Origin: Folioceros fuciformis | Lineage: Eukaryota | Assembly (NCBI GenBank): GCA_049999805.1 | Contig: JBNGIO010005925.1 | Coordinates: 1-32,672 of the forward strand | Direction: 5' to 3' | DNA length: 32,672 nt | Shown here: positions 4,735-31,397 of the stretch, one piece after another | Position numbering within the stretch: position 1 is the stretch's first letter | How the letters are laid out: every line of letters begins with the position of its first letter | Position numbers and translations under genes: made by a program | The notes under the pieces: generated by a model | Told to the model about the DNA's origin: nothing | The model's input: only the letters and a program-made list of their open reading frames with translations | The model's database searches: none

Positions 4735-5886
4735 TTATGTTCCGATTAACCGTTTGTAACGAGCATACCCCAGTACACCCCCGAAAACAAGAAATCCTGC
4801 GAACCCTGTTAAAACAACCACCCATTTGAACATGTAGGAGTGGCCAGTATTCCACTTGTATGGAAGGTTCATTCCAAATATTCCAGCCACTAGTGCATAC
4901 AGGGCCGTCACTACTGTTGCAGAGCTCAATATAAGCTCTAGCTGTATCAGCTGATTCCTGTGGTTGTCCAGCTGGATGTTGATGTAATCCTCCGTGTCAT
5001 CAATGTACTCTCGAAGTGTTGTGAGCTTGTTTAGAGTCCCATCAATCTGCATGAAGTATGCCTCCAATAACATTTCAAGCTCCTCAATGTCCTCAGCACC
5101 ATGAGAATAGGTAGACACCGTAGCGGCTCTGCTAGCCCCTCTCGAGAGCCTTGAGCCAATTGTGGGAGAGGTGGCGACCCAGTCCCCGGGTGTCAAAGAC
5201 GTCCGAGCAGCTCTAGGAGATGCTCCTCCCACAGTTTTCCTTGTGAGAAACAGGTCAGCCATGTCCCCGTCATCATCCAGAAGCTGTTCAAGCTCATCCC
5301 TAATCTTTTGAACACGGGCAGTGAGTCTGGTCATCCCGCTCTTCAGCTTCCTCACTTTGTCCAGATTCCGACTAGTAATCTTGTTCGTCAGATCATCTAG
5401 AGCTGGATACGCTGATGTCTCAAGTTCTGTCATGCTTGCGTCCAGAAAGCTACAAATTGCTTCCAAAGCCACTTCCAATGCCCTGAACTCGAAAGGAGGC
5501 ACCTCTCCACTACTATCCACATCGTAGCCCTCCGCTCCAAAATTGTCAGGTTGCTGGACATAATTCTTGGCAGGCAGCCTGCGAGAAAGCTCTTCCACGA
5601 TTGGTACTACGTGCTCGCTGTGAGGGTTCCGCAACAAAACCTCTTCAGCTGTGATTATAGCTTTGATGTGCTCAAGATTCAGAACGATGGCCCGCTCACG
5701 CCCTAGGATGGTCGATGGATAAGACAGCAGAGGGTCTAGAATCCGAAGATCACGGGCATGTATCCCTACCCGATGCATGATCGCATATTTGTCTACATCC
5801 AACGCAGTACGGTGCCCATTCACGTCGAGCAAAACCCAATTCGTGCGAGATGCTCCCTTCTTCGGGCCTTGTGCTTGGACCGCCAT
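4735..5886 (-). CDS. MRS2: MRS2/CorA-family magnesium transporter (MRS2-2/7/I-like), 383 aa, single exon
   Basis: [70 protein letters not shown] and a GMN motif at the end of the first of two C-terminal TM helices. First ATG of the frame is at 5886. Confidence 0.95.
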
Positions 5887-6650
5887 GGCAGCTCTTCGCC
5901 GCGCGGCCGCCTGAGGACCCCAATTCCGGCAAATCAAACAGCTGCACCATAGCACAAGGCAATCCCAGAACGTCGTGCATACTCCTTAGATTCCGAGGGA
6001 ACAGAGTCTGCACGTCGGGGCAGTTATGATAAATGCCTGAGGCGTGCTTAGGTCTGAAGGGCGGACTCCAGCGTCAGCATTATAATTGCTCCAAGAACAT
6101 CCTTACCCTAACAAGCCAAAACACGTGGGCATCAACGGTCTGGGCCGTCTGCCATGGAGATGTGGTCATGCACACTAGGCACCTGCGGATGCGGATGCTG
6201 CCACAACAGTGGTGTCGCTGGACGTTGACGGATGGCCACACTGTGTTAATTTAACCCCTTGTGATCGATCCAACAAAGTCGCTCTGCGTAGAGGGATTCC
6301 AGTAGGACCGCCTGATCAGCTCACTGCAAGGAATGAAGCCACGGAACACAATCAAGCCTTCAGTTACGGCAGTGAAAAGGTGCCCAGCGAAAAAAAATCT
6401 TCGAAAATATGACGTTTTATTCTCTCAGGGCTTGCAATAATAAATCCTAAGCGCTGCACCATCCTCTGGCTTGTGCGCTCATCCAAATGCATGGCATGCC
6501 AAAGTTTTGTCCTAGGGTATCTAGAAACATATTCGCTTTCAATTTTCACTTTGACAAATGAACCAAATCGGACCTTGCACGGGGACACAACAAGCAATCG
6601 CACATATTTATTTGAGTTTTGAGTAAAAACAGCTAGCCTTCCCGTTTTAT

Positions 6651-6780
6651 GTTCATGACTTCTCTGCTAGATTGAAAGAAAATAGGAATTGTTCATGACT
6701 TCTTGGCTAGATTGCAAGCACATAAGAACTGTTCATGACTTGTTTGCGAGACTTCAAACATAAGAACACTTTCATGGCTA
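6651..6780. repeat. Degenerate 40-bp tandem repeat (~3 copies)
   Basis: GTTCATGACTT... starts at 6651, 6691 and 6731. Confidence 0.75.
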
Positions 6781-8384
6781 TTTCCTATTGTTGTGGGGAG
6801 GATCTATATGGCATATGCTTTTAAGGTTTGGGGTTGGCCCAGGCTGAGGAACTAGCTTGCGCTTGATGCATTCTCATTATATGCAATTGCACAATGGCCT
6901 CCAGCCCATTTAAGGTTTAGGGTTTAGAGGTCCAGCCTTGGCTAAGCCTAGCAGGCAGCTGAAACGGGCTAAAATAGATAGCTTCTTTTGGTTAGAGAAT
7001 GTCCATTGTTGTTNNNNNNNNNNTAATGTCATGTACAAAATGATGATAATGGCAAGAGAGGTGCAATCAGTAATTCTAAGTGTAAGTAGAACCTTCCTCC
7101 TCTCAAACTATGATATCTTAGGTACTATTGGTAGTCATAATTATGGTATTAGGCTTAGCGATTTCCAAGACTAGCTCTCATTGGTTTGGTCACCTTTTGT
7201 AGTTTATCTCATCACTTTTGGAATAGATAGGTTCCATCTTGTTTTTCTCCATTGAAGAAAATTATAATATTTAATGTTTGTGCATTTAATTGCATCTTCC
7301 CTTTCTTCCCTTTAAACACCCCATCTTAGTTACGTTACCTCCTTCAAGGACATCCTTCCCTTTAGATGTCCTATTCGAACTACATTACATGCTCCAAGGA
7401 CATCAATCCTTCACTTCCTTGTCTTTAGTGAAATAATTTAAAAGTTACTCAGATCAATTGCACTTAAGCAATCACATATTAAAAAAATATTATTTCTATA
7501 AAAAATCTATTGAATTAATTAATTAATAGAAAAAAAAGTAAGTTGGTTTTTAAACACTGCTTTCATATGTGCCTTTTGGCTAGGGGCACAATTCTTCACA
7601 AATAGGTATGTCTATTTGTATCTATTTATCTTGCTTATCTAATAACTTGTTACTAACTGATAAGCTATATAAAACCTCTAGAACCTCTAAAACCTCGTCA
7701 GTACATATCTCCTTCTTCTTCATTTAAGGACCCTATTCTAAGTAGAACCCGAATACAAAGATGCTTACTCAACAATCTTCTTATATATTATACCCATATA
7801 TGTTGGGCTAAGCCATCATGTATGAGGGTTTTCTACTTCAACAATGTCTTTTGATTAGTTGACAAGTTTGAGTCTTGGACTACTTTGCTTCCTTACATTT
7901 ATTATAATTATGTTTGATTTCTTTAATTACGTTCTCAAGAATATTAAACAAAAAGGACTTCATCGCTAAAGAATGAAAACCTCCTCATTAAAGAACCCTA
8001 GGAAAAACACTCAACTAAATGTTACAAAATCAAGCAAGAACTTATCATCTATGGCACACCAAAGGCAGGCTCTTCAGTCTATCGTTCAAAGACCTTGGGG
8101 CCCAAAACAAAGGGAGGTCCTTAGGCTAGAGCCACCAACAAATACTTTTATTAGTAATGTCATCAACAAACCATTTACTCATTAAATGATCATTTTAACT
8201 TTACTATACTTTATGAATGTTTTCACATAAAGACAGGGGAACATTGGGATCCCTCTTTCGGTCACCCGTTTCTTTCAAGTGATCAATACAATCACTTCTC
8301 CATAATATCAGCTTAGGCACTTTATAGGAATCATCAGCACTAGCTAGCACTTCTTAAGAATATAAACACAAGCAATATATGAGA

Positions 8385-8480
8385 ATCAAAGGTGGAGGCA
8401 CTTTGCAAGGATCAGAGGTGGAGGCACTTTGCAAGGATCATTAGCATAGGCAATTTGTGAGAATAAAAGGTGGAGGCTCT
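8385..8480. repeat. Short tandem/dispersed duplication (ATCA(A/G)AGGTGGAGGCACTTTGCAAGG)
   Basis: Two adjacent near-identical ~26-bp copies plus a partial third copy near 8467. Confidence 0.7.
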
Positions 8481-9429
8481 CACAAACCCTCTCTATGGGC
8501 CAAGTGGAGACCGTAGAAAGGACGGAGTACATGTTGACATGTTGGTGCCCCTAGGTTGAGTTGGCTAGGTTGGTTGTTCTTAGAGTGATTACCAAAGTCT
8601 AGTCGTTAGGTGATTTAGTCATAAAAATATCTCGTTTAATCTACTAGCAAATCCCCACATTCATCTAAGCATGGAGGTGTTAGCATGGTTGATTTGTACT
8701 ATAGCCTTGATCTTCACATGTGAGTTAGCCTTTACAAATCCCTCTTGTGACTACAGATGCCACAAAAGCATGACCATGATTTGGAGGCAAGGTCTTTGAA
8801 AGTACAAGGTTTTTGTGAAATAAGATCATGATTTTCACTCTCATTCATGTGCAATTGGTTACATACCCTTTTTCAATGCCCATGAAGTCGCTTCTTCCAA
8901 GCATGTTCATATTAAAAGACTCATGTGGCATATTTGGACCCTTGAAATTTTATGGTCTTAGCTAGAGAATTTTTAGTCATTAGAAAGTATTAGGCTAGAA
9001 CATAATACTAGAGTAACAAATCTTCAGCAATATATATAGCTCAAAATTGTTGAGTTGCTTGTGTAGGCATAAAAAAGAGCAAGACCTAGCTCCCCTTCCC
9101 TTTAGCTTTTCTTGGCCTCCAATTGGCTATATGTCTAGCTTGTTTCTTGATGTTCTTGGATTCATGTTCTGGTGCCATGAAAATGTAGAAATTGTAAATA
9201 TAAATATCTTACTTCAATCTCAATGGAAAAACGCCAATGAGGTTTTCAGTGAGAGCTCGTTCAAATATCTTCACAATGGTGTATAAGACAACACATTTTT
9301 ACAAGTATGCAATTCAGCACAAAGCCTCAGTAGTAGGATTGATGTTCGTGTATACAATGGACTTATAGACTCTCACTCAAATGTGCATTTGGATGACTGG
9401 CGCCCATCTACCCCTCTCCTCCCCCTCCC

Positions 9430-9745
9430 CTTCTTGAGGCTTGGGGGAGGCTATGAGCCCCCCTTGTCCCCTATAGCTCACAACCATGAGTGCTCCTATG
9501 GCTATCCTCGAAGCCACTATTGGAGCTCTATGGATGGATGCAACATACATGCAATGCAATGGAACAGTTTGCACGAAACCCGTTACACTCCATCCAATTT
9601 CAAGCTCATAGTTCCCCCCTTTCCCCCTTGAGGCTTGGGAGCGAGAGAGGCTACGAGCCCTATGGATGGATGTAATATACTTGCGGTGCAATGCAACAAC
9701 TTGCACTAAACCCATTGCATTCCATCGAGTTTCAAGCTCACAATT
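9430..9745. repeat. Diverged local duplication
   Basis: CTATGGATGGATG...TTTCAAGCTCA occurs at ~9528-9609 and ~9660-9741. TTGAGGCTTGGG occurs at ~9434 and ~9628. Confidence 0.65.
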
Positions 9746-10144
9746 TTCTCCAAAACATGTAAACTAACAAGTCTAGTGTCTAGCAACTCATAGGTTAAGT
9801 TTGATATTTTAATACATGAAAATGAAAATACACATCATTATTATAAATATCATATAACGACTCTTTTGTCATCGTCATTCTCTTCCATATTCATCTTATA
9901 TATATAACAGTCACTCTATAGATGGAGGCTATATCATTCATCGGTTGTCATAAAAGACTCCACAATGTAGTAGTGTTAATTTCCCAGCCTCTAAGACCAA
10001 GGAGATGAACTACTTGTTGCATACATTGTCCAGCCTAACCTCAATTGAAGCTCTAAAACACATGCATGCTAGGAGTCGTGGCAGTCCTTGTCCACACCTA
10101 TTGCAACCTATGTACGATAACCAAATGCATGTGACACTTTGAAG

Positions 10145-10183
10145 GATTTAGGGTTTAGGGTTCTTAACCCTAAACCCTAAATC
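10145..10183. repeat. Perfect inverted repeat of plant telomere units (18-bp arms, 3-nt spacer)
   Basis: GATTTAGGGTTTAGGGTT-CTT-AACCCTAAACCCTAAATC. Confidence 0.9.
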
Positions 10184-10277
10184 AATGATCCTTTTAAGGA
10201 TTGTTGTTTAAACCCTTTCATGAAGAATAGTTGTAACAAATAAGGAGCATCTCCAATAATGTAAGGAGGCATAGGAA

Positions 10278-10510
10278 CACCTTCCACCATGGTAATGAGC
10301 TCTTTAAATAGGCTCTTTCTGATCATCTGTTGCCATGAACTACTATTTCACAAAATTCTTGCATCATTAGAACCTCCTGAGACTATTGAGGCATAAATCT
10401 AACCTTCCATCATGGTAATGGGTTCTCTAAATATGCTCTTTCCGATTACAGATTGCCATTAACTATTACTTCCAAAATTTTGCATCATTAGGACCTCCCA
10501 AGACTATTGA
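10278..10510. repeat. Diverged tandem duplication (~120-bp period) inside the transposase relic
   Basis: ACCTTCCA.CATGGTAATG...TGCATCATTAG.ACCTCC..AGACTATTGA is present twice. Confidence 0.8.
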
Positions 10511-11487
10511 CAAATATATCTAAAACAAGTATTGATGGTCATATATAGCCTATAGAGCAATACAAGGCATGTTATAATGCTTGCAATGATATACTATTGG
10601 TGTGTACATTGGTGGTGGCTTAACAATGAACTGTATCAAAGAGTCGTCAATAGCACCTACAATGTTAAGTAGTAGTGTCCACTCAAACTTTGCAGAATGG
10701 CTTCCTAATGTTGTCTTGATGGAATGCCAATGAAAGACAAGTATAATTTCCTAGGATCACTTAATATAGCCATCACAGCCTTTGTGTATTGTACCACTTG
10801 TTGCCACACCCACTCCATGTTTTATGGGCCACCTCATAAGGAGCAATTATCTTCATGGCTGATAATATTGCATCCACCCTTCGCTTCTGATCTTGCACTA
10901 AAGCTGATAGTATTGGTCATGCTTGCATCTGCAAACTCTCCCACAAACCTTGCTGACTAGGTGATTTCCACCAAACCCTAGAAACACTTGGTCTTGTAGT
11001 CTATATTGGCAAACTAATTGTTGCAACCATTACCAACATTATGAAAGAACTCATCACATTACTTGATTCCACCCTAAAACAAGGTTTGATAAGTTTCGCT
11101 ATAGTTTTTCATTTTGAGGGTACATGTTCTAGACAGGCAACATAGAGATTCTATGTGAAAATTCTATCACCCTCCCTGAGTAATCTTTGGTATGTCATAG
11201 TTCCCTGCAACTCCCCGTTGAATTTCCTTGGACACTCCCTCCACATTGTTGGGCAATGGGATGAATTAATATGCAAAACGGTTATAATATACATTGAGGG
11301 AAACAATTATGGTGAGTTATTATACACGACTTGCAGTCTGTGCTGTTTCCTGCACACCTCCCATTGAGGTTAGCCTCTATCCGTAAAAGTTCTGTGTATA
11401 GCGGGTACTAATGGAGACATAGCAGAATGTGCGGGGCACTATTAATGGTGTCACACTTGTTATATGTGCAAACACTCTATTTCCTGT

Positions 11488-11670
11488 TAACTTTAGGCTT
11501 TTGTTAAGCATCATCCCTTACTTTTCACGAATACAAGGTCCACTTTTTTCTCCTTTTTGCATGTAAAGCTTCTGGTCATATTAATCGTGTGAACTTTAGG
11601 CTCTTGTTAAGCATCACCCCACACATTTTACATATACAAGGTCCGCTTTTTTCTCTTCCCTGCATTAAAG
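11488..11670. repeat. Diverged tandem duplication (~103-bp period)
   Basis: AACTTTAGG...TTGTTAAGCATCA...ATACAAGGTCC.CTTTTTTCTC is present twice. Confidence 0.7.
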
Positions 11671-11781
11671 CCCAATGGCTCCCACATTCTACTCACATGA
11701 ACCCGGGAAAAATAGTGGTATGAGAAACGGAAAGCATGGCCCCACTTTACGAAAATCTCGGACTGATACAGAAACAGAGCT

Positions 11782-11885
11782 TAGTCCGTGATAAGGAGGA
11801 GGGTAGTCCCTGATATGGAGAAGGGTAGTCCGTGATACGGAGCCCTCCTCTCTACCCGGAGCTTGGTCCGTGATACGGAGCCCTA
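11782..11885. repeat. Short degenerate repeats (GTCCGTGATACGGAG)
   Basis: About four variants, at 11784, 11806, 11828 and 11866. Confidence 0.65.
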
Positions 11886-11902
11886 CTCATCATGGAGCTT
11901 TC

Positions 11903-12480
11903 TTTTTAAGAATGTTCCTGCAACTTCGTCCCGGACGGACCAGTTTTTAAGAATGTTGCTGCAACTTTGCACCAGATGGACCGGTTTTTAAGAATGTTGC
12001 TGCAACTTCGCACTGGACGGACCGGTTTTTAAGAATGTTGCTGCAACTTCGCACTGGACGGACCGGTTTTTACGAATGTTGCTGCAACTTCACACCGATG
12101 GACGGGCTTTCAAGAATGTTGCTGCAACTTCGCATCGGGACAGATGGGTTTTTAAGAATGTTCCTGCAACTTCGCACCGGGACGACGGGACGGACAGGTT
12201 CTTAAGAATGTGCATGCAACTTTGCACCGGATGGACCGGTATATAAGAATGTTCGTGCAACTTTGCAAGCACAAATCGGTTATTAAGAATGTTCGTGCAA
12301 CTTCGCACCGCACGGACTGGTTTTTTAAATGTTCTTGCAACTTGGCACCGAACGGACCGGTTTTTTAAATGTTCCTGCAACTTGGCACTGGACGAACCGG
12401 TTTTTAACAAGGACGAACCGGTTTTTAACAAACTAGTTTTTAAGAATGTTCCTGCAACTTCGCACCGTATGGACCGGATC
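11903..12480. repeat. ~39-bp tandem minisatellite (roughly 13 copies)
   Basis: Unit TTTTTAAGAATGTT(G/C)CTGCAACTTCGCAC(T/C)GGACGGACCGG. Confidence 0.92.
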
Positions 12481-12610
12481 ATCTTAAGCACTACTAATAA
12501 GGAGCATACCAAAGGAGACATTCTCTAACTATACATTTTTTAAAGGTTTCCTATGGATATCTAGCCACATATTCCCTTTTGATGCTTATATGTTTCTTGT
12601 CCTTTTGATC

Positions 12611-12677
12611 AACCAACCAAACCGGACGCCGCACCAAAGCGTTTGGGAAACCAACCAAACCGGACGCCGCACCAAAG
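12611..12677. repeat. Exact 29-bp direct repeat
   Basis: AACCAACCAAACCGGACGCCGCACCAAAG at 12611 and 12649. Confidence 0.85.
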
Positions 12678-13537
12678 GGATACAGAAGAAATACCACAAC
12701 CCTTAGTTTTCATGTTCACACTCTATAAATTTGTCATGCTAGGGTGGTGGTAAGCTTTTTTTCGATCTGAGGAAACGTTGACATGTGTTCATATGTCAAA
12801 TGTCCGGTGGGGCGCATAACCGGTATGTTTGCAAAAAATCCTAGAGAGACTTTGGTATGCCATAAGAGCCCTTCAGACTGCAAGTTGGAGCTTTGGGTTC
12901 GGTCGTCGTAGGGTGGGAAAAGGGGGCTTCTGAAGAAAAGTGAGCAGGATGCAGCACTTGGCACGCAACTTGCTTGCATCAGAATTTTTGGACGACGGAA
13001 CATTCCCCTCCCCTTAGCCTATCTAACAACCTCGCGGTGGCTGTATCTAGTGCACGGAAGTGTATGGACTCAATCCCCGAGACATAGGACACATTTACAA
13101 CGACAGAACTCTGGGCACGACATCCGCGTCCATGCCACGTTTCCTACCTAGACTAGGTAATTCCACCGCAATCAACCTTCTCTCAAAGCTCAGCCAGCTA
13201 CCAGCTCGCACTGCCCGACGCCACCAGGCAAGTAACCTTCTTGGTCAGCAGACAGCATCATCAGGGATGGATACCTCACACTTACATATGGAACTCGTCT
13301 TATGGTGCACTTACTACTGCGCAAGAATGCACTCTACACTACACCTACTGCACTCAAAGCTAAGCAGCTTGGCTTCAGAGAAGCAGACACGTACTAGTAC
13401 TAACACCGGCCCTTTATCTAGCTAGTCACCTCAATGAATAAGGCTACACATAATTTAAACACATAGCAAATGAAATCAGCCACATTCTGGCGAAACGAAT
13501 AGAACGAATTTCAATAGGTCGGTGCGCTACTCCTAGT

Positions 13538-16500
13538 CTAAACAAAGTAGGAAGCAGAAGTAGTCAAGTCTGACAGGATCTCCAGTTGGTCCTCACTGAA
13601 CAGATACTTCTGTATGGCCCACGTGTCCGAATGAGTGCGTCGAAACTCCGCTATGGTTTTCATTACCGTACCTCTGGTGGGTGGACCTTCCTTGATGAAC
13701 CACGCCAAAGCGCAAATGATATCAGGTAACCATAGAGGAACGTCATAAGGAGAACTCAACACGCAAGCTGCCAGACCCAATGCGATTCCATGAACCTTGG
13801 CAACTGGATACCCAGCAATGCTACTCCTGTTTTTCCTCCTGCCAGACTTTTGGAAGGTCAGAGCCTCGGCCAGTGCCTCGTCCCGAAAACTGGTAACCAA
13901 CTTCTCATCAGCCCCTTTCATCATTCCTGCCAACGTTTCTGCTGCCAGCTCCCGGACCTCCAGCTGAGGATCGAAGAGCAGCTGCCGCACAGTATCCCAC
14001 AGCAGCGTTGACTCTTCCTCAGACATGATGAAGGTATGCCTGAAGAAGAAACACTGCATAGACACTAACGCTGCCACTCTCGTGTGCCAATTGGAGTCCG
14101 CTGTCGATAGAACAATAGCAGCCACAGCTTCTGGGAGATGCGCTGCAGGACATGGCTGATAGTTGAGAAGCCGGAGAGCTAACATGGCCAGCGCAGACAG
14201 CTCCTTCTCAGATGTCTCTTGCAGAGACAGCAGAGGGCGGATGAGGCCCACAATAGTACTGATAACAACCCCTGCCCTGCCAGACTTGATGCAAGCAATC
14301 ATGAAATACAGTGCAGTCTCCATCCACTTCACCGCTTGTTTACTCTCCTCACTTCCAACATCACTGCCGCTGGCATTGCTATCGCCGGAACTCAGGGCTG
14401 ATGCAGAGCTCATTATCTGAATCTTGGATGAGGCACTGACAGCACCCTGCACTAACAGTGAGCTCCAATCCTCGTAATGCACCCCGGCAAAGGAACTATC
14501 CACAGTAACCCCCTCTGTATTCAAGATACCCTTCAAGTTTGACAGCAAGACGCACATAATGTTCCCCACTGCTTCACGAACCTGGGCCGCAGGATGAGCC
14601 ATGCTATCCACTGCTTCTCGTAAAAGCGCTGCCTGGAACTTGTAACCCTTGATCCCGGCAGGCCCAGGCAGTAGCTCTGTAACTGCCGCTTGCAGCAGGG
14701 TTAGTCGCCTTGCAACCAGGCTACTTGATGCTGAGGCTGGTACTGGCTCCACAAGACAGTCAAGTATCTTCCTGGATAGCAATGGCTCACTCACTCCGTC
14801 ATTGCCTTTCCGAGTCATAGCAAAACGAATGCAGGCAGCCCATTCTGTCACGGATTCCAAGTTTGCTTGCATCACCACGTTTCTCAACAACGGGCCAAGC
14901 CATTCATTCCAGGCCTCCAACACACACGTGGCATCTGAATGCAAAAGACCAGCAAACATTTCAGAGGCAACACATTGCTTGCCCCTTTCATCCACAGCGT
15001 TGGCTGCATCCTCAAGTGGGCCACGCAGGGCATCAAGTACCGCTGGACCACATTCCTGAACCAGATATTCAAACACCCTGGCTAAATTAGCTGAGAACGC
15101 TTCACCTCTGGAAGTTATGTCCCAAGTCCTTGTTCGGGGCCACTCTCTGATGAATGAAGGCATATAAGCGGTGATTCCCAGATCTGACATCCTCTGTCGA
15201 CTAGATCCAGCATAATTGTTTCTGCCTGACCTCCCCGGTCCCTCCGGATAGTGGTGATCAAAGGCAAGATTCTGGACAACATTGGCAAAAAAATCGCCAT
15301 CCTGCAAGACTTGCACAATGGAACTTTCCACAGAACGTGGGAATTCTTGAACACCTGATTCGGAAACCTCATTATCCGATCTGCCCTCTGCAGCCACCTG
15401 AGTGGGGGACTGGAGAAGAAATTGCAGGGCAATGATGGACATGGGTCGGAGTGGCGGAAGCTCACTCTTCAAATTGGAGAAGAACTGCCCTGTTATGTAC
15501 TGCCTGGAGGCTGACGTGACATCTTCCCCATATGACGAGCCAAACAACCTGGGAGGAGTCACCAATAGCAGGAGCATGGCATGGGCCATCAATGTGTACC
15601 GCCAATGAACTGTTCCCTGATTGCCCGCCAAGAAGCCCTTGATTTCTGATATCAGTCCATCGTACATGGGACCATCCTCGGAGGCATGAGGCACTTCGCT
15701 TGGCAGGACTCCCCCAAACCGCACATAAAACACAACAAACAGTTCATTTATGGCTGCCTGGGCTTTAATAGTTTCAAGATGAGAACTGCGGAGCAAAGAC
15801 AACAAAAACGAAGCGAACGAAGGCCAATCCTGCATGAGGCACCGAATCACATGCCTCGACATGAGTACCCTACAAGCTCCCAGAGCCGCCTCTTCAACAC
15901 CCTCAGGTCCTCGCAGCGAAGCAGTTAGCAGTGGCATGCAACCCTTCACGAGTGCAGGAAACCTCTTAAGCATCTTGCTCAGGGTGTTTGCTGCTTGACC
16001 TCGCACTGTGTCATAATTGTGGAGAGAGAGTTTCAGAAGATCTCCAGAGAGAGAGAGAACGTGGGCTGGAGGAGCCAGCTTCTTGGTGGTGGGAGTGTAT
16101 GGCCTGTACCCAGCTTGGGACGCTCGCCATTCACTATGCAAGTAGACTTTTTCGATTAGGAACCATTGTGGACGCCGAGGTCCCTTTGTGTATGTGCCTG
16201 TTATAAGATTGATCTGAGGCTCCAGAAAGCTTCTGCTAGATGATCTCCAAGCTAACCAGTCTTCAAACTCCAGTGACCCATAATTACCAGTCAATCCAAT
16301 CACTCGCACCAAAGTCAGAAGCAGCTTGGTATCATCTGCCCTCTCCTTCAGGAAAGATTCACATGCAACATGAAGAGCATCTGCAGTCTCCTCTCGCAAT
16401 TCAACAGATCCAACAGAGGCTCCAGCAGCCCCGGCAACAGTTAAAGATTGGCCAGATAAATCTGCATTTGATGGGCGTCTGAAATCAGGCAAGCAAGATC

Positions 16501-19057
16501 TCACACCATGGAGACTTGCTTCCATGCGTAGCAGGACTACTCGTAGGTCTTCCTTCTCCTGCCGTAAAACATCCCCAGTCTGTGCCTGCTGGCAGAAGCT
16601 CAGCAACTCAGGAAGTACGCATCGCAGGTGTGAGTCCAACAACGCATTGGCATATGCAACTTCCTCTGCACTTGGCGCATGCCATACTGGCGCCTGACCT
16701 TTAAATGTCTCCACATCGAAGTCCTTGATACTCATCCATGCCTCAATGTCAGCGAAGTACTTCTCCCCAGACCTGTATTCCTCAAGTGGATAGTACCGTA
16801 TCAAACTCCCCAGTAAATTACTCAGCAGATGGCTTCCAGCCTCATTCACTTTGGTGGAAGGCGCCCCGAAGGCTGCCTCAATCACATTGTTTAACAGATC
16901 CTTGTAAGGGAGGAGAGCTTCTCCACCAAATGTTACAGCTAGAGCAAGAACATTAATCTGGTGAGAGACTGACGTGGACAGAGCGGGAGACAAGCTTGCC
17001 AGCTTGCCATCTGCTTGATTCCTCAAACCCCTGGAAGGAGCCTCAGCCAGAGCAGAGATTATGGACATCATTATCGGCTTAAGAAGGACTTCCGTTGTCT
17101 CAACCGGACTGGCATATACCGCAGCACGGCAAAGCAGACCTATTTCGTCTGAAGCTCCAGGTAAGACGCTGGTGTGCACAAACTTTGCCACCTTTTTCAA
17201 ACCCTGCTGGAAGAGCGGCTTTGTTAACCTACCAAACAGTAGTTCAATCATAGCGTGACACACGGATCCACGCTGAAGCAGAAAACTATGAGAGCACCGA
17301 CTGAACCCTTCGTCGACTCCCACATCTCCTGCCTGACTACTAGGTTCCAAATGCACCAGCAGTACAAACAGACGGGAGAGAAACTCGTCAAGCCACAGAG
17401 ACCAGTCAATTGGTAGGAAAACATTCCCACCTTCCTCAATGCCACCCAAAACTAGGATGCTTGATATTACAGCAAAATAGAACCGCAATGTTGCCAGGGT
17501 CTTAGGAGGGTCGTTGGCATCCATCCCAGGGAGTGTGTCGAACATGGCAGCGACAAGGACTTCCTTGTAGGCCATACTGGCCATGGTCTCTTCAGTAGCG
17601 TCAAGCATGTCCACATCCTTGCCAGCCAACTGCCGTGAGGCAACCTCCCTTGCTGACACTAGCAGTATGGATCTGGCAGCCAACGCCAGAGTGTTCAAAG
17701 CTGATTCCAACTGATGAGTGGCTGTGATAGTATCCATGGCAGTCTGAAAGCCCGCTATGACCAGAGGTAGAACCAGGGATGGTTCCACATATGCCAGGTT
17801 TGTCGCCGCATCTGCTGCAGTTCTTGCCAGCTGCCCATTCTTGCTGTACTGGCCCCTCTCAATCAGCTTCAACATGGCTTTCACAAACGCCACCCGTTCC
17901 TCCGGGCCTAGAAAGTGGTCACTGTCCACGCCATTTTTCAGCTTCAACCTTTTGCCTTGCTCCTTGGCCAGGCGTTTGAGGAAAAACATGACGAGATATC
18001 GAAGAAACTGTTCAAGAAAAGTCGTCCATGATCCTCCATTAGACGGATGGTAATACTGCTCAAGGAGCTCAACAATAATCTCAAGTTGAACCTGAGCTGA
18101 ACCCCCTGGATGCAGCAGAAAAACAATCGTCCTGGCTATTACTTTAGCATTTGACGTTGACCAGCCAGAGTTGAAGGCAAGCATAACTTCACGCGGAACA
18201 GATCTCTGTACCGGCGATGATGCACTGGCCTTCCCGACAGGTACCTCAAATGACCTCAGAAAGTGCATGAAGAGAGTAGGCATGACGGGCTCCAAGTCAG
18301 CAACAGCAGGGGCACAGTGCTGAATATACCTTCCCACCAGGGAGGACCATTGCAGATTCCAATAGTAGCAGTTTGGGATTGCCGACCACAACTTGAGACA
18401 GTCTGCTAGCCATTGCGGAGTGAAAAAAGTACGGTCCCAATCAGAAGCCGCATATTTGGTGGGGAGAAACAATGAGATGAAACCCACTGCTTCGAGCGCC
18501 AGATTGTGAGACAGATCCTCCAGTGCAGGTTTGAACTCCGCCCAGATCTCCCCAGCAGACTGTGAAGGGAAGTAACGGTGACAGCTTCTCACCAATGATG
18601 ACACCAGCTCCAAGTGTGTCTGCTTCAATGCTAGACCTTCATAGCTATGACGCCTGTTGAAATGAGTATTGAGGAGCAGAACATAGAGGGGCCTCCACTC
18701 AATGTTCAAGACAAGTTTTTTTCGATACTTCTTAACAAGTGTAAGTAGGCAGTGCCCCCATCGAACCTGGACAAAGAGATGGTCATTGGACTGCAGGAAG
18801 ATGTCGAGGCTCAGCTCTGCAAGGCACTGCAAATCCGCCAGATCAAGGTCACTCTTAGCCTTCAAAAATGTGGTGAGAACAGAAATCCACCGCAGTGTTG
18901 CATATCTAGACTGCGGCTCTTGAGGCTTCCATTCGCTTTGGACGGTCTGTACAACAACATGGAATTTCGTCCTCTCCTCAGCTACTCCCTCAAGGATGGG
19001 TGGCGGCAGCCATGCATTGCAGAGGTGGACTTTCTCTGGTTCAGCAGTATCCGCCAT
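13538..19057 (-). CDS. PA200: Proteasome activator subunit 4 (PA200/PSME4/Blm10), 1839 aa, single coding exon
   Basis: The N-terminus HLCNAWLPPP matches the plant PA200 start. Also LLEQYYHPSNGGSWT, GMDANDPPKT, SSPYDVPLWLP and AEFRRTHSDTW, with a C-terminal ...SASYFV (proteasome-docking-type tail). First ATG of the frame is at 19057. Confidence 0.95.
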   Translation of the reverse strand: MADTAEPEKVHLCNAWLPPPILEGVAEERTKFHVVVQTVQSEWKPQEPQSRYATLRWISVLTTFLKAKSDLDLADLQCLAELSLDIFLQSNDHLFVQVRWGHCLLTLVKKYRKKLVLNIEWRPLYVLLLNTHFNRRHSYEGLALKQTHLELVSSLVRSCHRYFPSQSAGEIWAEFKPALEDLSHNLALEAVGFISLFLPTKYAASDWDRTFFTPQWLADCLKLWSAIPNCYYWNLQWSSLVGRYIQHCAPAVADLEPVMPTLFMHFLRSFEVPVGKASASSPVQRSVPREVMLAFNSGWSTSNAKVIARTIVFLLHPGGSAQVQLEIIVELLEQYYHPSNGGSWTTFLEQFLRYLVMFFLKRLAKEQGKRLKLKNGVDSDHFLGPEERVAFVKAMLKLIERGQYSKNGQLARTAADAATNLAYVEPSLVLPLVIAGFQTAMDTITATHQLESALNTLALAARSILLVSAREVASRQLAGKDVDMLDATEETMASMAYKEVLVAAMFDTLPGMDANDPPKTLATLRFYFAVISSILVLGGIEEGGNVFLPIDWSLWLDEFLSRLFVLLVHLEPSSQAGDVGVDEGFSRCSHSFLLQRGSVCHAMIELLFGRLTKPLFQQGLKKVAKFVHTSVLPGASDEIGLLCRAAVYASPVETTEVLLKPIMMSIISALAEAPSRGLRNQADGKLASLSPALSTSVSHQINVLALAVTFGGEALLPYKDLLNNVIEAAFGAPSTKVNEAGSHLLSNLLGSLIRYYPLEEYRSGEKYFADIEAWMSIKDFDVETFKGQAPVWHAPSAEEVAYANALLDSHLRCVLPELLSFCQQAQTGDVLRQEKEDLRVVLLRMEASLHGVRSCLPDFRRPSNADLSGQSLTVAGAAGASVGSVELREETADALHVACESFLKERADDTKLLLTLVRVIGLTGNYGSLEFEDWLAWRSSSRSFLEPQINLITGTYTKGPRRPQWFLIEKVYLHSEWRASQAGYRPYTPTTKKLAPPAHVLSLSGDLLKLSLHNYDTVRGQAANTLSKMLKRFPALVKGCMPLLTASLRGPEGVEEAALGACRVLMSRHVIRCLMQDWPSFASFLLSLLRSSHLETIKAQAAINELFVVFYVRFGGVLPSEVPHASEDGPMYDGLISEIKGFLAGNQGTVHWRYTLMAHAMLLLLVTPPRLFGSSYGEDVTSASRQYITGQFFSNLKSELPPLRPMSIIALQFLLQSPTQVAAEGRSDNEVSESGVQEFPRSVESSIVQVLQDGDFFANVVQNLAFDHHYPEGPGRSGRNNYAGSSRQRMSDLGITAYMPSFIREWPRTRTWDITSRGEAFSANLARVFEYLVQECGPAVLDALRGPLEDAANAVDERGKQCVASEMFAGLLHSDATCVLEAWNEWLGPLLRNVVMQANLESVTEWAACIRFAMTRKGNDGVSEPLLSRKILDCLVEPVPASASSSLVARRLTLLQAAVTELLPGPAGIKGYKFQAALLREAVDSMAHPAAQVREAVGNIMCVLLSNLKGILNTEGVTVDSSFAGVHYEDWSSLLVQGAVSASSKIQIMSSASALSSGDSNASGSDVGSEESKQAVKWMETALYFMIACIKSGRAGVVISTIVGLIRPLLSLQETSEKELSALAMLALRLLNYQPCPAAHLPEAVAAIVLSTADSNWHTRVAALVSMQCFFFRHTFIMSEEESTLLWDTVRQLLFDPQLEVRELAAETLAGMMKGADEKLVTSFRDEALAEALTFQKSGRRKNRSSIAGYPVAKVHGIALGLAACVLSSPYDVPLWLPDIICALAWFIKEGPPTRGTVMKTIAEFRRTHSDTWAIQKYLFSEDQLEILSDLTTSASYFV

Positions 19058-19351
19058 TCCTTTCGCTGCGATGCCAACTTCAGGTCGCTGTGTACCTGAC
19101 TGGTTACCAACAAGCCAACGAACTATCCTGTTTCCACAGTCGGCCGCACACTCCTGAAACCTCTGCCAGTCAACAATTACAGCACAGCCCTGCGATCCCA
19201 CTCAACCCTTGTCCACTCCTGTTCCTCGTCAGAAGGCACGTTGAGCATAGACACTTGGAACCGAGTACCACCACCAACTCCCGTCGTATGCAGAATCCCT
19301 AGCACCAGCAAGAAAAAGCGAAGCGGCTGGTAGCAGGTCAAGGTAGTACTG

Positions 19352-20160
19352 TCAGCATCCCAACACAGCAGGATGGCCGAACTCTTCGATGGTCTTTGTG
19401 GCCAAAACTAGGACATCCATGAAGGCACTGAAAGCGGCCCTTAAGAACCTGGCCTCCACTGCGGCAAAGGTCCTGGTACATGAACAGTACACCACAAATG
19501 AGTTTCTGATGGCTTTGTGCACACCAAACCGGGTGGACACAGACTCCAGAGGAAAAGGAACAAACGAGGACTGTAAATGTCCTGGAATCCGTTGGATTCA
19601 TGTGTCAGAGCACACAGGAGGAGGGCGTCCGAAACTCACACCACAAGAATTTGTCCATTCACCGAGATTTCCCTCGTCACTTTGTCCGGTTGCAGCTGCA
19701 GGCCAACGGGTGCACTGACAAGCATGAGATTGCGGCCACGACGGCAGAGAGAAGCGCTGAAGAGCGGAGATGCATGGTGCGTCACCTCAGAATCGACAGC
19801 AAGAGCAGTCATAACAATCGTTGCCACATCTTGGGATGCATACTCCACTTGCAAGTTGCTGCAAGAATGGTACAAAACTGAGACAGGTCTAGAAGCAGCA
19901 GGAAGGGTAGCAGCAGCAGCAGGTGGTATCAGCAGACTCGACGACGGACCGACCGACGGAACCCATCATCTGCGTCTGCAACACCATCTGCTGTATTTGT
20001 CACCCAATTTCGACAATGCAGTGTGAGCGGGAATTAACAAAGAGGGGACGGCAGGCGCGAGCCGGACGTACCATGTGCAGGTGGTCGCGGGAGCTGCGGC
20101 GGTGGGAGCGAGCTGCGGTCCAGGTCCAGGCGGCGGTGGCGAGACGGCAATGGTTGCCAT
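19352..20160 (-). CDS. PCC1: KEOPS/EKC complex subunit Pcc1 (LAGE3/CTAG family), ~112 aa; exons 20160-20072, 19858-19786, 19695-19640, 19472-19352
   Basis: Spliced product MATIAVSPPP...TCTC-NLQVEYASQDVATIVMTALAVDSE-LQPDKVTREISVNGQILVV-TFAAVEARFLRAAFSAFMDVLVLATKTIEEFG. All introns are GT-AG and phase-compatible. Exon 1 is the least certain. Confidence 0.85.
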
Positions 20161-20418
20161 GTGCCTGGCCCGGCCCGAAGATGTTCCTACTCTCACACAA
20201 AGGCGGTGCAGTGCGGTGGGTTTCCCCGTTCACCTCCTATTTTTTTTCCCCCCCCCTTTTTAGGTCGCTTGCTCAACAGACAAGGGAAGGAAGCTCCCTC
20301 TCTGACCAGACAGGAAGGTGGAGGGTTTCGTTCCGACGAGTTCTCCAGAGCCCTCTCTCTTGGAGAGCAAGGCAAGGAAATAATACGTCCAATTCTAGGT
20401 TTCCGGAATGAGACGCTC

Positions 20419-21238
20419 ATGCCTACACGGGTGGCGCATCTAGGGTGGCCTCGACAGCAGCTCTGCAGGAAGTTGCCGTGTCACTTCATTAGGAGCTGCT
20501 TGGCACATAGGGCAGGATCAGTAGATGCATCGAGTGATGAAGAGAGGCTGAGTAAGGGCCAAACGTACAGCATGGAGAGGTGCTTCTCGGCACAGGATGT
20601 GGAGGCATACGCACGGCTTTGTGGGGACACCAACCCCATACATCAGCAGATTTCTGCAGCAGCAGCTGCAGGATTTGGGGAGGGATGTTTGGTCCATGGC
20701 ATGCTGTATGCAGGCCTTTTCCCGGCAATCATAGGATCCAAGTTTGTAAGTGTGTGCATGAATCCCTATGGTTGCAATGGGTTGCTTTGTGCGTCATTAC
20801 ATGCCGTGCTTTTGTTTTCGCTGGCAATGAATCGACCTTTGAGAAGCAGAGCAAAACAAAAACCTCTCTCACCCAATTGTGTTTCACCCCTCCTCCTATC
20901 TTTAGCTTCTCCTCCTGCCTCGTTTGTGAAAGGGATAGCCAGGAGCTGTGTACATTTCTCAAACTCTGGAATTCCGCAACCCTGTCTTCGTCGGCGAGAG
21001 TGTGGTGGCCAAAGTTCAAGTGGCAGAGACAAGAAAGCTGAGACGTCATTACAAGTTGTTTCCCTTCCTTCTTTCCTTCCTTCATTGGATGCGTTTTGAG
21101 TGACTTTGATCTGTGCACGTGACAGCTCCTATCGCTCTGGATTGCTGCAGAGTGTCGTTTGCTACCACCTGTCATAAGGGCGTTGCCCTCGTCCTGGAAG
21201 GGTCTGCCGTGGCACTGGTGCCAGCGGAGTTGCCGTAG
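20419..21238 (+). CDS. HTD2: MaoC/hot-dog-fold dehydratase, probably mitochondrial 3-hydroxyacyl-ACP dehydratase (HTD2/mtHD-like); exons 20419-20745, 20939-21054, 21151-21238
   Basis: FSAQDVEAYARLCGDTNPIH, VHGMLYAGLFPAIIGSKF|PGAVYISQTLEFRNPVFVGE, VLEGSAVALVP. The Arg-rich N-terminus resembles a presequence. The start codon and the exon 2 donor are uncertain. Confidence 0.8.
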
Positions 21239-21558
21239 CGATTGTGCGCCTTGTGCCGTGTGTAAAGTGTAGAAGTAGACTAGCCGACACGTGTCCAGAC
21301 CTTGATTGGATAAGGATGCAGTGAAGGTTATGTCTGACTTCCGACGACGCAGTGTTCCCGGCGACAACATACATTCATTCCATGTTGTGAAGCTTTGAAA
21401 TGTCATTCGCTCTGAGCTGAATGAGGAAGAGAATTTTTGAGCGGTTCATGCTCTCGAACCAGCAGTAGCATGTCGCACACCTCAGCAAACGTGTAGATGT
21501 ATCAAACCACCACAGGTGCAGCTGCGGTGTAGCCACGACGATCCAAAATGTGACCATC

Positions 21559-23190
<1,632 letters not shown>

Positions 23191-26480: not shown

Positions 26481-26483
26481 ACT

Positions 26484-26642: not shown

Positions 26643-26699
26643 CTTCTTATTAGGAGATTGTGCCTGGAACATACATTAGTTTTCCTCGATACATCGGTT

Positions 26700-27235: not shown

Positions 27236-28339
27236 TCAGGCAGAGAACTTGACACCCTCATCGTCTGTAGATGCTCCTGTAAAGACTGCAGCTTTGCCCC
27301 GCTGTTCAAGGATCTTGAGGGCTCGGGTCAAGATGGTCCGGTCGATGCCTTCAATTTCTGCGACAAACTCGAGCATGCATGGCCACGGCATGTCAGTCGA
27401 GGTTTGGACAAGGAAACGAACAAGAAGGAAATGGCCATACCCACTCCTCAGGAGCAGGAGGAGCCTTGTCCTCCTCAACAAGCCTCGGCAGGCTCGGCAT
27501 ACCTGAACCACGTGTCTCGTCTCCTGATCTGATTTCTTCCAACGTCATCACACTGTCCCCAAGTCCATTGTCACGAACCTGATCCAACATCCAATGAATT
27601 TCAAAATCATGGGTGAGTGGGTGACTGTTGACTGCCAAGCCGCACACAACTAGGCAGCTCAGAACTTACAAACTGCAAGATCCAGTCAGCCCAGTCCTGT
27701 ATCCTCCTCCAGAGGATTAGACACCTCCTATGAGATTTGTCCAACCACTCCCCTCTTCCTGCACGCACTCAGATAGCCACACATCCAACTGTGTTGCTAC
27801 ACTCCACCTCAGCATTGCTGTCCAATGCCTCATCGCTCATGACACAACCGTGAGGTTACCTTACCTTCTGCAACAAGAGCCCCAAGGAAGACTTCCCTGG
27901 CTTCATTATTCAGTTTTCCTGCGCAGCCCACAATTCCAATGATCACCCAACTAAAACAACAACAACAACAACCACAGGCGTCAGCCATTGTGTGGCCTGG
28001 CTGCCCAAGGTCACATACGCTCAATTGTGGGATTCACGAAAAGGGGAAACTCCTCCTCCAAGTTCACTACAGAGATCTTGTGCGCTTTACAGTACTGGAG
28101 AATGAGCTCCTTCCACAGCTGCACTTGCTTTTCCCTTGTGTCCCTCACCGGTTGCAACCTGTACGCACACCATTACCATTACGATTTCAAGAGACACACC
28201 CTTCACATATGCTTGGCTGGGATGGTGCATCCTAGCCGAGATCAGACAGATGTTAAAGCACACCATCTTCTCACGTGAAGTAGGGAGGATAGTTGTAGAA
28301 GTTGGGGAGCTTGAAGGACTCCCCAGAGTGTACTGCCAT
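27236..28339 (-). CDS. VPS25: ESCRT-II subunit VPS25; exons 28339-28275, 28158-28019, 27918-27865, 27758-27670, 27578-27503, 27357-27236
   Basis: FKLPNFYNYPPYFT|LQPVRDTREKQVQLWKELIL...CLILWRRIQDWADWILQF|VRDNGLGDSVMTLEEIRSG...DDEGVKFSA. Five phase-compatible GT-AG introns. Confidence 0.93.
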
Positions 28340-28385
28340 AAGCGACATCACTGCACCCTGAACGCCTGCTACGCCTTGTTCTTCT

Positions 28386-28416: not shown

Positions 28417-28547
28417 AAAGCGAACCAGCTCCTTGACTCGCATGCCTTAAAGCTTGTTAAATTCCCGCAACAGTTTCACAACTCGCCCGATTCCGACAAT
28501 TTTTGCTCCCTACCTCTTGGCCTTGGGTGGGCGAGGCCTGTCGCTTG

Positions 28548-31397
28548 ATGGCGACCACAGCACGGTTTGGGTTGCTGCTACTCCTCCTGTACGACGTCGT
28601 AGCTGGATTCAGGTTTGTTGTGCTGATGTTAAGTCGATCTCGGATGGAAGTGCTGCTGCTCCTGGAAAGCGCACGACCTTCATGCATCTTTTGTGGCGGC
28701 AAGGCACGGATGTACTAGAAACAAACAAGTATTTAACATGTAGAATGCTGCTCTCTCCACATCAGACTGGGTGAAGCAACAACCAGGAGCCCTAGTCGTG
28801 TGAGAGACTTCGAGACAGGGCAAGGGCTGGCCATCACACCTCCTCGCGGGTGGAATTCGTACAATTCCTTCTCGTGGGTTCTTACCGAAGACGAATTTTT
28901 AGCTAATTGTGAGATTGTGTCGCGTAAGCTGCTCCCCTATGGCTACGAGGTAAGAATCACTTGCAATCCACTTCAAGAGATGTGCTGGGCTGGGCTCTGC
29001 TCTGGCTTGCAACCTTTTTTTGCCCCTCACACTGTGGTCTGTGTGGTATGTGGGACAGTATGTGGTGGTGGACTGGCTTTGGTATCGCCAGCTCAAGCCT
29101 GGGTCACATGTCAAGTCTTTAGGTTTTGATGTTATAGATGAATGGGGACGCCCAATTCCTGATCCTGAAAGATGGCCTTCGTCGCGAAACGGTCAAGGAT
29201 TTCGTCCCATTGCGGACCGGGTGCATTCTATGGGCCTCAAGCTTGGCCTACACATCATGCACGGCATAATTGCAGCTGCTGTGGATCAAAACACACCCAT
29301 CTACGGAGCCAAGGTGGGAGCTGTGTGCATGTTTCCATACGTACCAGGCAATTACAAGTAACGGGGTGTGACCCAGCTTCTTTTCTGAGAGACAGAAAGT
29401 GTTGTTGCCTCTCCAGGGAAGTCCAGATGGAGACGGAGGGCGACCATGGACAGCACGAGACATTGCTGTTGAAAAAGACCAGTGTAGATGGATGATCAAA
29501 TGCTTTCTTGGCGTGAACACTAGCACCGAGGGTGGCCGTGCCTACATAAATTCCTTGTATCAACAGTTTGCTTCATGGGGTGTTGACCTGGGTGAGGCTT
29601 TGTCCTTGAAAACCTGATCACCTAGTCTTTGATGGGGCCTCCATAACCCAGTACTTGTTTCTTTCTACCTTCACACAATGCAGTGAAGCAGGACTGTGTT
29701 TTTGGCGGCCCTGATTTGCGCTTGGATGAGGTAGCTGCTGCGGACGAGGTGAGGCTAAGCATGGCGTATCGTGTGCCACAAGATTTACTCCATGAGCGGT
29801 TGTGCAACAAACTTGGAGCCTGTCCTTCCTCATTGCTGTAGGTTGACATGCACAGGCCATAAAGGCTACCGGTCGCCCTATGCTGTTCTCCATCTCACCA
29901 GGGAAATCTGTCACCATGAAGGAGGCAAGTCTTGTCCAGAACATGAGCCACACTTTCAGAGTGTCGAATGATGTATGGGACAAATGGTCCCATCTTCGTC
30001 ATCACTTTGACCTTGCCAGGTAGTTTGGTCTCGCTCTGTGTCTCCTGTTTTGGCAACAATGGTTCAGTTGCTCTAACCGAGTTGGTTGGTGGCTGATTCT
30101 CCTTGGTCAATTGCTTGGCAGAGAGTTCACAAGCTTGATTGGTGGGGCTGGGTTGCACGGCGGGAGATCATGGCCGGACTTAGATGCAATGCCGCTAGGA
30201 TATCTCTCAAAGCCAAGTACACATGTTTTTTAAATTTCCGTTTGCGTATGTTCTCCTGTGTTCAAGTTCACATCTAGGCTGGTAGTTGTGATGTGTTGCA
30301 AGTGAACCTCCACAAGCAGGTTGCAAACTTCAATTTCATGTGGACAGGTGCACCTGTTGGGCCTTTCCGCTGGTGTAGTTTGACACGAGACGAACAAAGG
30401 ATGCTGGTACCCTCCTGAAGCAGATGATGTTAAGCATGTGATGATGAGTCCTCTTGTTTTGTTTTGTGTTGTTTCGTTTCGTTCTGCTACGTCTGACGAC
30501 CTTCCTTGACTGAGGGAAAGTTTCGCGTTCCAGATCACGCTTTGGACCATGGCGAGATCTCCATTGATGTTTGGTGGCGATTTGCGGAGACTCGACGAGT
30601 GGATGTATGACCTGATCACTCACCGTCTTGTTCTCGAGATCAACGACCATAGCTCCAGCAACCTAGAGGTATTGAATCTGCTGCACTTTTGCAGGCTTTG
30701 CAAAGCGTGCATGTATCCTGCTGGCGTTGGTTGCGGGCAGACCAAGTGACAGCTGTAGAATTTGGATTGCAGCTTGTGAGGAGTGCCGAGTCGGGCACGT
30801 CTGCCTCAGAGCTGGATGACATCCGAGTATGGGCTGCCCGTGGCTCAGCAGGTATCCATCCCGCCGCATGCACAATGTAGTCCATTCTCAGTGACTCGAT
30901 GGACATGGCAAAAGTTTTCATGTCCACCTTGGTTGGCACTGCGTCGTGTGGCATGTCCAGGCCTGTTCTACATAGCCTTTTTCAATCTGAGGTCATTTTC
31001 AGCATCCATATCCACCGAGCTGAAGGACATGATGGAGCAGGTCCGTGCAGGTGCACCGAACTCTGAGTGGAAGTGCTCCGTGATGGATGGGTGGACCAGC
31101 AAGGTACTGGGCGACCTGACAGACAGCATCACAGTGGTGTTACCAGGACACAGGTCGGCGCTGTACGCGATGAAATGTCATGAACATACCTTGTCGGCGC
31201 AGGCGAGGAGCAGGGTCAGCAGAGCCACCGTGATGTTGTTAGTGGTGTGCAGTGCGGCTAGCCTGGTCCTTGTGTCACTAGTTCTGGCCTTGATCCTATC
31301 CGTAAGAGAGGTTGCACAACAGGTGGAGCAAAGTGGAGAGTGCTGGCGGTATTCAAGTAGACGGCAGAACGGTGATGTCACACAGTCAATGTTGTAG
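28548..31397 (+). CDS. Glycoside hydrolase family 27 (alpha-galactosidase/beta-L-arabinopyranosidase-like) with signal peptide and C-terminal TM helix; exons 28548-28612, 28766-28949, 29059-29313, 29417-29591, 29684-29748, 29856-30019, 30122-30216, 30348-30406, 30534-30668, 30773-30851, 30961-31397
   Basis: TPPRGWNSYNSF, YVVVDWLWY, PDPERWPSS, GLKLGLHIM, WGVDL|VKQDC (nucleophile), RVSNDVWD (acid/base), SWPDLD, TLWTMARSPLMFGGDL, YIAFFNL. Introns are GT-AG and phase-compatible. Confidence 0.9.

Follow-up and report, generated by a model that had tools for sequence, protein, structure and literature searches.

The gene for the Blm10-type proteasome activator PA200 (PSME4) was found to contain no intron in the hornwort Folioceros fuciformis, where its coding sequence (CDS) occupies 13538..19057 on the minus strand of a 32,672-nucleotide (nt) stretch of DNA (assembly GCA_049999805.1, contig JBNGIO010005925.1, positions 1 to 32,672 of the forward strand; hereafter the window). 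The comparison of gene structures given below indicates that the lineage of the window has lost every ancestral PA200 intron precisely, with the frame kept colinear. The reading favoured here, with a rough probability of 0.6, is that a reverse-transcribed, spliced and near full-length mRNA recombined with the gene and so removed the introns in a single event or a few events, probably at the native locus and before the split from a congener. The gene was identified by its open reading frame (ORF), Pfam domains, a match to human PA200, an alignment with orthologues, and contigs of both DNA and RNA runs.

PA200 reading frame and protein

The minus strand of the window was found to contain a single very long open frame at 13538..19201. 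Its first ATG was found at 19057, followed by 1839 codons and a stop codon at 13538-13540, which gives a CDS of 5.5 kb with zero introns. With stop codons expected at a frequency of about 3/64, a frame of this length could not have arisen by chance. The protein contained the Pfam domains HEAT_PSME4_mid (PF16507, 1.8e-49), PSME4_C (PF11919, 2.5e-26) and HEAT_PSME4 (PF23096, 3.5e-6), all three scoring over the curated cut-offs. The human PA200 chains (6rey, 6kwx) matched the window protein at 6e-87, and yeast Blm10 (4v7o) matched it at about 4e-17.

The database search returned 343 relatives of PA200, and query coverage was 99-100% in nearly all of them. Among the named relatives, the identity to the window protein was 49-51% in liverworts and mosses, 45-46% in Selaginella and ferns, and 42-44% in flowering plants. 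The top relative (78% identity) was a protein of another organism; this was the one close match, and no close duplicate of PA200 was found in the sequence records searched. The MAFFT alignment with eight land-plant orthologues contained no insertion of at least 5 amino acids (aa) private to the window protein, or to the window protein and its 78% relative, and the deletions in the window protein were merely 4-6 aa long. The lack of a private insertion and the colinearity with orthologues indicate that the frame hides no in-frame intron and that PA200 is complete. The C-terminus was found to be SYFV, as compared to the plant consensus SYFA; this tail may be of the HbYX type, which docks into the alpha ring of the 20S proteasome. 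The window gene is taken to be the functional, expressed PA200/PSME4 orthologue of a bryophyte that belongs to neither the mosses nor the liverworts. An earlier prediction made from the letters of the window (hereafter the original prediction) had described an uninterrupted 1839-codon PA200 ORF with intact ends, and this ORF was recovered at the same coordinates, with domains and orthologue colinearity from end to end.

In a FastTree tree of 20 PA200 proteins, the window protein and its 78% relative formed a fully supported pair. The pair was placed apart from the liverwort, moss, Selaginella, fern and seed-plant proteins; its grouping with one liverwort clade and Physcomitrium was weak (0.65). 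Two well-separated PA200 clades were also observed, both of which included a protein of Marchantia and one of Riccia, and a wide distance was likewise found between the two proteins of Adiantum. From this tree, PA200 would have been duplicated long ago in land plants.

Absence of introns in genomic DNA and RNA

Of the 24 public runs listed, none of them recorded as RNA, 20 contained part of the window, three of these containing at least half of its words. Two of the three best runs came from one sample of the same organism and were DNA-like, and the third came from a different, older study of that organism; a group of runs of a congener contained a small share of the words. Four runs (X1, X3, X5 and X7) were compared with 12673-32672, and their DNA or RNA nature was judged by whether the introns of neighbouring genes were present or absent.

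The contigs of X1, a DNA run of the same organism, matched the window letter for letter on 12708-13886, 13904-15140 and 15175-22279, and the third of these pieces extended from the interior of the PA200 CDS through PCC1 and the dehydratase gene, with its intron, into the gene for monodehydroascorbate reductase (MDAR). Since this piece spans PA200 coding sequence together with unspliced neighbours, the intronless CDS stands in genomic DNA. X1 is possibly the source of the assembly itself and hence not independent of it.

The contigs of X3, from the other study of the same organism, skipped the introns of neighbouring genes at GT..AG borders, or at CT..AC borders on the minus strand, and X3 was for this reason taken as RNA. 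One contig of this run (record 9; 6970 nt) was found to match 12928..19471 on the minus strand with zero mismatches and zero joints. It covered the PA200 CDS, about 610 nt of 3′ untranslated region (UTR) and all the space up to the last exon of PCC1. Its upstream end lay at most 2 nt from the acceptor AG of the last PCC1 exon (19474-19473), and its further 426 letters were not found there; these extra letters would be the spliced exons of PCC1.

The runs of a congener, X5 (RNA-like) and X7 (DNA-like), differed from the window by about 7% (359 of 5153 letters). The congener DNA contigs were colinear with the window on 13969-14654, 14651-16245 and 16216-18033, with gaps of 0, 0 and 4, respectively, so that at least 4 kb of the PA200 CDS are intron-free in a second species as well. 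PA200 is without intron in the CDS and in the UTR covered by RNA, and the gene is expressed. The original prediction had described PA200 as intronless and would have been refuted by cDNA-derived sequence taken into the assembly. Such an artefact is scarcely credible, as the CDS runs on in the DNA contigs into intergenic DNA and neighbours that are unspliced, and the congener DNA is colinear.

In X7, 55 nt of the PA200 CDS at 18295-18351 were replaced by 1 nt. The net difference of 54 nt is in frame and corresponds to 18 codons, which is consistent with a constrained coding sequence.

Introns of PA200 in other land plants

Metagenome contigs were scanned with an alignment of ten PA200 proteins, which gave 64 loci, each labelled by its best named protein match only. 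Two loci (L009 and L007) were nearest to Physcomitrium PA200 (61% and 57% identity, respectively) and are called moss-like. Five were angiosperm-like, with L012, L016 and L021 nearest to Populus, L027 nearest to Arabidopsis and other Brassicaceae, and L049 nearest to Medicago. Several colinear, cDNA-like loci (such as L001 and L006) were uninformative on introns. To count exon-like pieces, each genomic locus was searched by tblastn with its nearest protein, and the resulting pieces were chained.

The moss-like locus L009 was found to contain 27 exon-like pieces, corresponding to 26 boundaries over 16.4 kb, and the partial locus L007 contained 20 pieces. The five angiosperm-like loci contained 32-33 pieces each, corresponding to 31-32 boundaries. 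The boundaries were mapped onto the window protein by alignment, and those present in at least three of the five angiosperm loci were taken as clusters, of which 33 were obtained. Within 5 aa of an angiosperm cluster were found 19 of the 26 boundaries of L009 (p = 9e-9, binomial) and 16 of the 19 boundaries of L007 (p = 1e-9), the chance cover of the clusters being about 20%, or about five of the 26 boundaries of L009. The seven non-matching boundaries of L009 were mostly located where an exon piece had gone undetected. Boundary positions common to the moss-like and angiosperm-like loci indicate that about twenty or more of these introns were already present in the PA200 gene of the land-plant common ancestor.

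The converse account, in which bryophytes and algae had few PA200 introns from the start and vascular plants gained theirs, finds a point in its favour in one distant locus (L032, 31% identity), which was nearly colinear in two pieces. It is nevertheless very improbable, since 19 of the 26 boundaries of a moss-like contig coincide with angiosperm positions and so place introns in the common ancestor. The original prediction, which described PA200 as intron-rich in angiosperms and animals and would have been refuted by ancestrally intron-poor orthologues, was thus upheld on moss-like and angiosperm-like genomic loci.

Congener variant at the 5′ end of PA200

A different form of the 5′ end of PA200 was observed in the congener. 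One DNA contig of X7 joined 18661 directly to 19579 with 14 other letters between them, and an RNA contig of X5 broke at 18661, apparently into the same letters (the first letters of the loose end were compared). The joined form is without PA200 codons 1-132, the 5′ UTR and the last exon of PCC1. The normal N-terminal region (18569-19047) was also present in X5. The break falls exactly between codons 132 and 133, near an ancestral intron position (about aa 131), but no AG stands at the end of the adjoining letters. Possible readings of the joined form are a truncated second locus, an allele with a deletion, and an artefact of the assembly graph.

Flanking DNA of PA200

The flanks of PA200 were scanned for the hallmarks of retroposition. 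Near the transcript end at 12928 no A run of at least 8 nt was found, the longest being 6-7 nt and 90-170 nt away. No target-site duplication was found, the flanks sharing one 9-mer as against 0.6 expected, and no direct repeat of at least 40 nt was found to bracket the gene. The statement of the original prediction that a poly(A) tail and a target-site duplication are absent was therefore borne out, and a bracketing repeat was lacking as well.

The 3′ side of the gene was found to contain an AT-rich spacer at 5990..12927 (32-46% G+C; no strand assigned) with an N run at 7014-7023. Pfam gave neither a transposon nor a reverse-transcriptase domain in 71 of the 81 ORFs of at least 40 aa in 5990-13540, the other 10 being ORFs of a tandem array that were excluded. 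The sole Pfam match in the spacer was a sub-threshold match to a poxvirus family, which was taken as chance. The tandem array was observed at 11892-12477, just past the 3′ end of the PA200 transcript, and comprised 13 units of about 41 nt each. The DNA-run depth was about 3 times the baseline in the adjoining bin 12673-13339.

Origin of the intron-free gene

In the favoured reading, the PA200 mRNA would have been spliced and reverse-transcribed near full length, as in the Baltimore/Fink model, and the resulting cDNA would have recombined homologously with the PA200 gene, whereby many adjacent introns would go at once. By this route the promoter would be kept, and neither a poly(A) tail nor a target-site duplication would be left behind. 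The conversion would probably have taken place at the native locus, ahead of the divergence of the two congeners. Exact excision was found in the window, as all 26-32 mapped intron positions lie in a continuous ORF with the frame intact, which is what cDNA-mediated loss would give. The lack of a poly(A) tract, target-site duplication and bracketing repeat fits recombination with cDNA in situ, and total loss in PA200 beside intron-dense neighbours points to a process that works on entire transcripts. Anthoceros angustus is reported to contain a mean of 3.81 introns per 1.31-kb CDS (PMC7027989, of which a part was used), from which about 16 introns would be predicted in a CDS of 5.5 kb; this number is a rough guide.

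The mRNA-to-DNA route had been put forward in the original prediction, and its first part, a total and lineage-specific loss of introns through CDS and UTR at positions shared by other plants, was supported, whereas reverse transcription itself is deduced from the pattern of loss only. The further claim that the copying was unusually processive was dropped. Retrotransposon reverse transcriptases routinely copy templates as long as the PA200 mRNA, and unusual processivity is not required for a template of this length.

Several points weigh against loss by cDNA recombination at the native locus. The window contains no sequence mark of reverse transcription, and the absence of hallmarks fits an old retroposition or stepwise deletions equally well. 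The long branch leading to the lineage of the window leaves room for many separate losses. The two PA200 clades in liverworts and ferns hint at a possible second, intron-bearing copy in the genome. The 8 neighbour-gene pieces searched by tblastn matched none of the 64 metagenome loci, which were therefore uninformative on synteny. The evidence on gene structure also carries limits of its own: the DNA or RNA labels attached to the runs are guesses, the state of the neighbouring introns being relied on instead, the names of the loci ('moss-like' and the like) are nearest-match labels, and the boundaries were read from the ends of tblastn pieces without a spliced aligner, so that their counts are lower bounds and their positions are good to about 5 aa.

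An unlikely account is that of a processed retrogene, in which a full-length PA200 cDNA was inserted at a new site, 294 nt downstream of PCC1 and in the same orientation, and gained expression, followed by the loss of the intron-bearing parent. The gene is intronless through the CDS and the UTRs, and the lack of every ancestral intron is what a processed retrogene would show. The tight placement behind PCC1, with an RNA contig bridging both genes, would suit borrowed upstream transcription, but a contig over PCC1 and PA200 is not proof of a single transcript. On its 3′ side the gene is followed by 7 kb of AT-rich DNA with repeats, and no reverse-transcriptase or other transposon domain was found in the ORFs searched there. 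Hornwort pentatricopeptide repeat (PPR) genes are reported to be retroposed (PMC13386178, as far as the part used goes). That neither a poly(A) remnant nor a target-site duplication nor a bracketing repeat was found speaks against insertion, although an old event would have lost them, and the replacement of an essential single-copy gene takes two steps, a gain and then a loss. Slightly less likely still is a stepwise course in which the introns went one or a few at a time along the long branch, by partial cDNA conversions or genomic deletions. Time would have been ample, and introns as short as those of the neighbours (about 90-150 nt) are easily deleted; MSH1 is reported to be intronless in three Anthoceros species and in Marchantia, so that intron-free long genes recur in bryophytes (PMC10487979, in part). 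Against such a course, all 26-32 positions are gone without a survivor and without a private insertion or deletion of at least 5 aa at the former junctions, and introns remain dense in the genes alongside, with at least 8 in GH27 and at least 4 in VPS25. Recombination of the gene with a near full-length cDNA is accordingly retained as the preferred reading, at the probability given at the outset.

Neighbouring genes

The genes next to PA200 were found to keep an intron per about 100-300 nt. Their intron counts are lower bounds, being taken among the joints listed (15 of 71). The original prediction had stated that PCC1, the dehydratase, VPS25 and GH27 retain introns, and this was confirmed by a split Pcc1 domain in the first and by RNA joints in the other three.

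PCC1 (a subunit of the KEOPS/EKC complex) was located at 19352..19965 on the minus strand with split exons, the pieces of the Pfam domain Pcc1 being contained in two separate minus-strand ORFs at 19355-19597 and 19639-19965. Its TGA stop codon at 19354-19352 lies 294 nt upstream of the ATG of PA200 on the same strand. A single RNA contig was observed to span spliced PCC1 and the whole PA200 mRNA (12928-19471 plus extra letters), which could reflect overlapping UTRs or read-through.

The MaoC-like dehydratase gene (identified by Pfam) was located at 20038..21096 on the plus strand, with at least one GT..AG intron at 20746-20938 that was found as an RNA joint in both X3 and X5. The MDAR gene at 21559..22878 on the minus strand encodes a protein of 439 aa with full Pfam coverage. 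Its CDS contained no intron, and it was colinear in an RNA contig of X3 (21151-23072) and in congener DNA (21557-22834). The protein ends in SKI, which we take to be a tail of the peroxisomal type. The G+C content of the MDAR CDS region (21559-22872) was 0.62, as compared to 0.50-0.52 in the other single-exon genes.

VPS25 (a subunit of ESCRT-II, identified by Pfam) was located at 27239..28172 on the minus strand and contained at least four short introns, with four CT..AC joints at 27357-28018. The GH27 alpha-galactosidase gene at 28451..31397 on the plus strand contained a Melibiase_C piece and at least eight short introns, with eight GT..AG joints at 28608-30958. Another joint of an RNA run was found at 31683/31778 (GT..AG). 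The region 23345-26679 was repeat-rich, with N runs at 25450-25459 and 26584-26593, and no Pfam domain was found in its ORFs. The DNA-run depth reached about 620 in this region as against a baseline of about 11, which indicates a high-copy element.

At the other end of the window, a PPR protein with an E motif and a DYW deaminase domain was found as a single ORF at 917..3640 on the plus strand by Pfam. Its deaminase domain contained lysine-proline in place of the canonical histidine-aspartate, and the protein ended in GRP and not in DYW. This variant is presumably of the DYW:KP type, which is linked to U-to-C editing in hornworts, lycophytes and ferns. A single ORF at 4735..5886 on the minus strand encodes an MRS2/CorA-type Mg2+ transporter of 383 aa with full Pfam coverage, the evidence for this gene being that of the ORF. 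No Pfam domain was found in the small ORFs of 1-950 and 3600-4750 (22 of 38 ORFs).

Extent of intron loss in hornworts

All-or-none loss of introns in PA200, MRS2 and MDAR had been claimed in the original prediction. In the window, MDAR was found to be intronless by RNA and DNA and MRS2 to be a single ORF, a pattern that is suggestive, but four genes in one window are a small sample for a general claim. Elsewhere, 103 of the 149 Mg2+ transporter (MGT) genes examined are reported to contain 4-6 exons (PMC6345045, in the part used). Among the papers listed, a search of the literature gave no report of hornwort PA200 or of genome-wide all-or-none intron loss in hornworts; for PA200 this is a weak test, since the search on its name listed 15 of 1,777 papers, none of which contains PA200. 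Two hornwort genome papers (PMC7027989, PMC8075897) contained no statement on intron loss in the portions of their main text that were used, supplements apart.

It is conceivable, and at present improbable, that hornwort genomes are bimodal for introns, with whole-transcript replacement by cDNA, possibly tied to the retroposition activity that expanded the PPR family, having made many long, steadily expressed housekeeping genes (PA200, MDAR, MRS2, MSH1 and others) intron-free in situ. If so, their neighbours would keep nearly all ancestral introns, and the contig bridging PCC1 and PA200 might reflect compact tandem transcription units. If it held across hornworts, such a pattern would tie the evolution of introns to retroposition in a lineage placed at a key node of the land-plant tree, and the case of PA200 would gain in interest if intron retention per gene were bimodal genome-wide.

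The window adds a new example to a known kind of event, in which some thirty introns have gone scar-free from a 5.5-kb essential gene. The placement of PA200 beside intron-dense genes makes it a clean natural test case for whole-transcript conversion versus piecemeal loss. For the annotation of hornwort genomes, a conserved gene modelled as one long exon can be genuine and need be neither split nor called contamination.

Comparison with known systems

The closest parallel was found in the moss class IV HD-Zip (C4HDZ) genes, which are reported to have lost all introns, a loss attributed to recombination with reverse-transcribed mRNA (PMC3773374; this and the two following papers were used in part). 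As in those genes, every intron of PA200 is precisely gone, the relatives are intron-rich, retrogene scars are lacking, and the gene still appears functional. PA200 differs in its size, since a CDS of 5.5 kb with about 26-32 introns would need a near full-length cDNA of an mRNA of about 6.5 kb, or several conversions. It also differs in its lineage, being a hornwort case as against a moss case, and the cDNA mechanism is inferred in both.

MSH1 is reported to be intronless in the hornworts Anthoceros agrestis, A. angustus and A. punctatus, compared with 22 introns in the ancestors of seed plants (PMC10487979). Like PA200, it is a long housekeeping gene that is intron-free in hornworts and was intron-rich in the ancestors of seed plants. 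Introns are lacking from MSH1 in Marchantia and many outgroups as well, which leaves its ancestral state ambiguous, whereas the shared positions in PA200 point to loss. Signatures of retroposition are reported for the PPR genes of hornworts and lycophytes (PMC13386178), which resemble PA200 in being intronless, in belonging to the same lineage, and in being attributed to mRNA-to-DNA copying. The PPR retrogenes are dispersed duplicates of an expanding family, many of them with poly(A) remnants and flanking transposons, whereas PA200 was found to have neither. The PA200/PSME4/Blm10 proteins of human and yeast share the domain set and length of the window protein and match it from end to end; with an identity of 43-53% to named land-plant orthologues, only the structure of the gene sets the hornwort PA200 apart.

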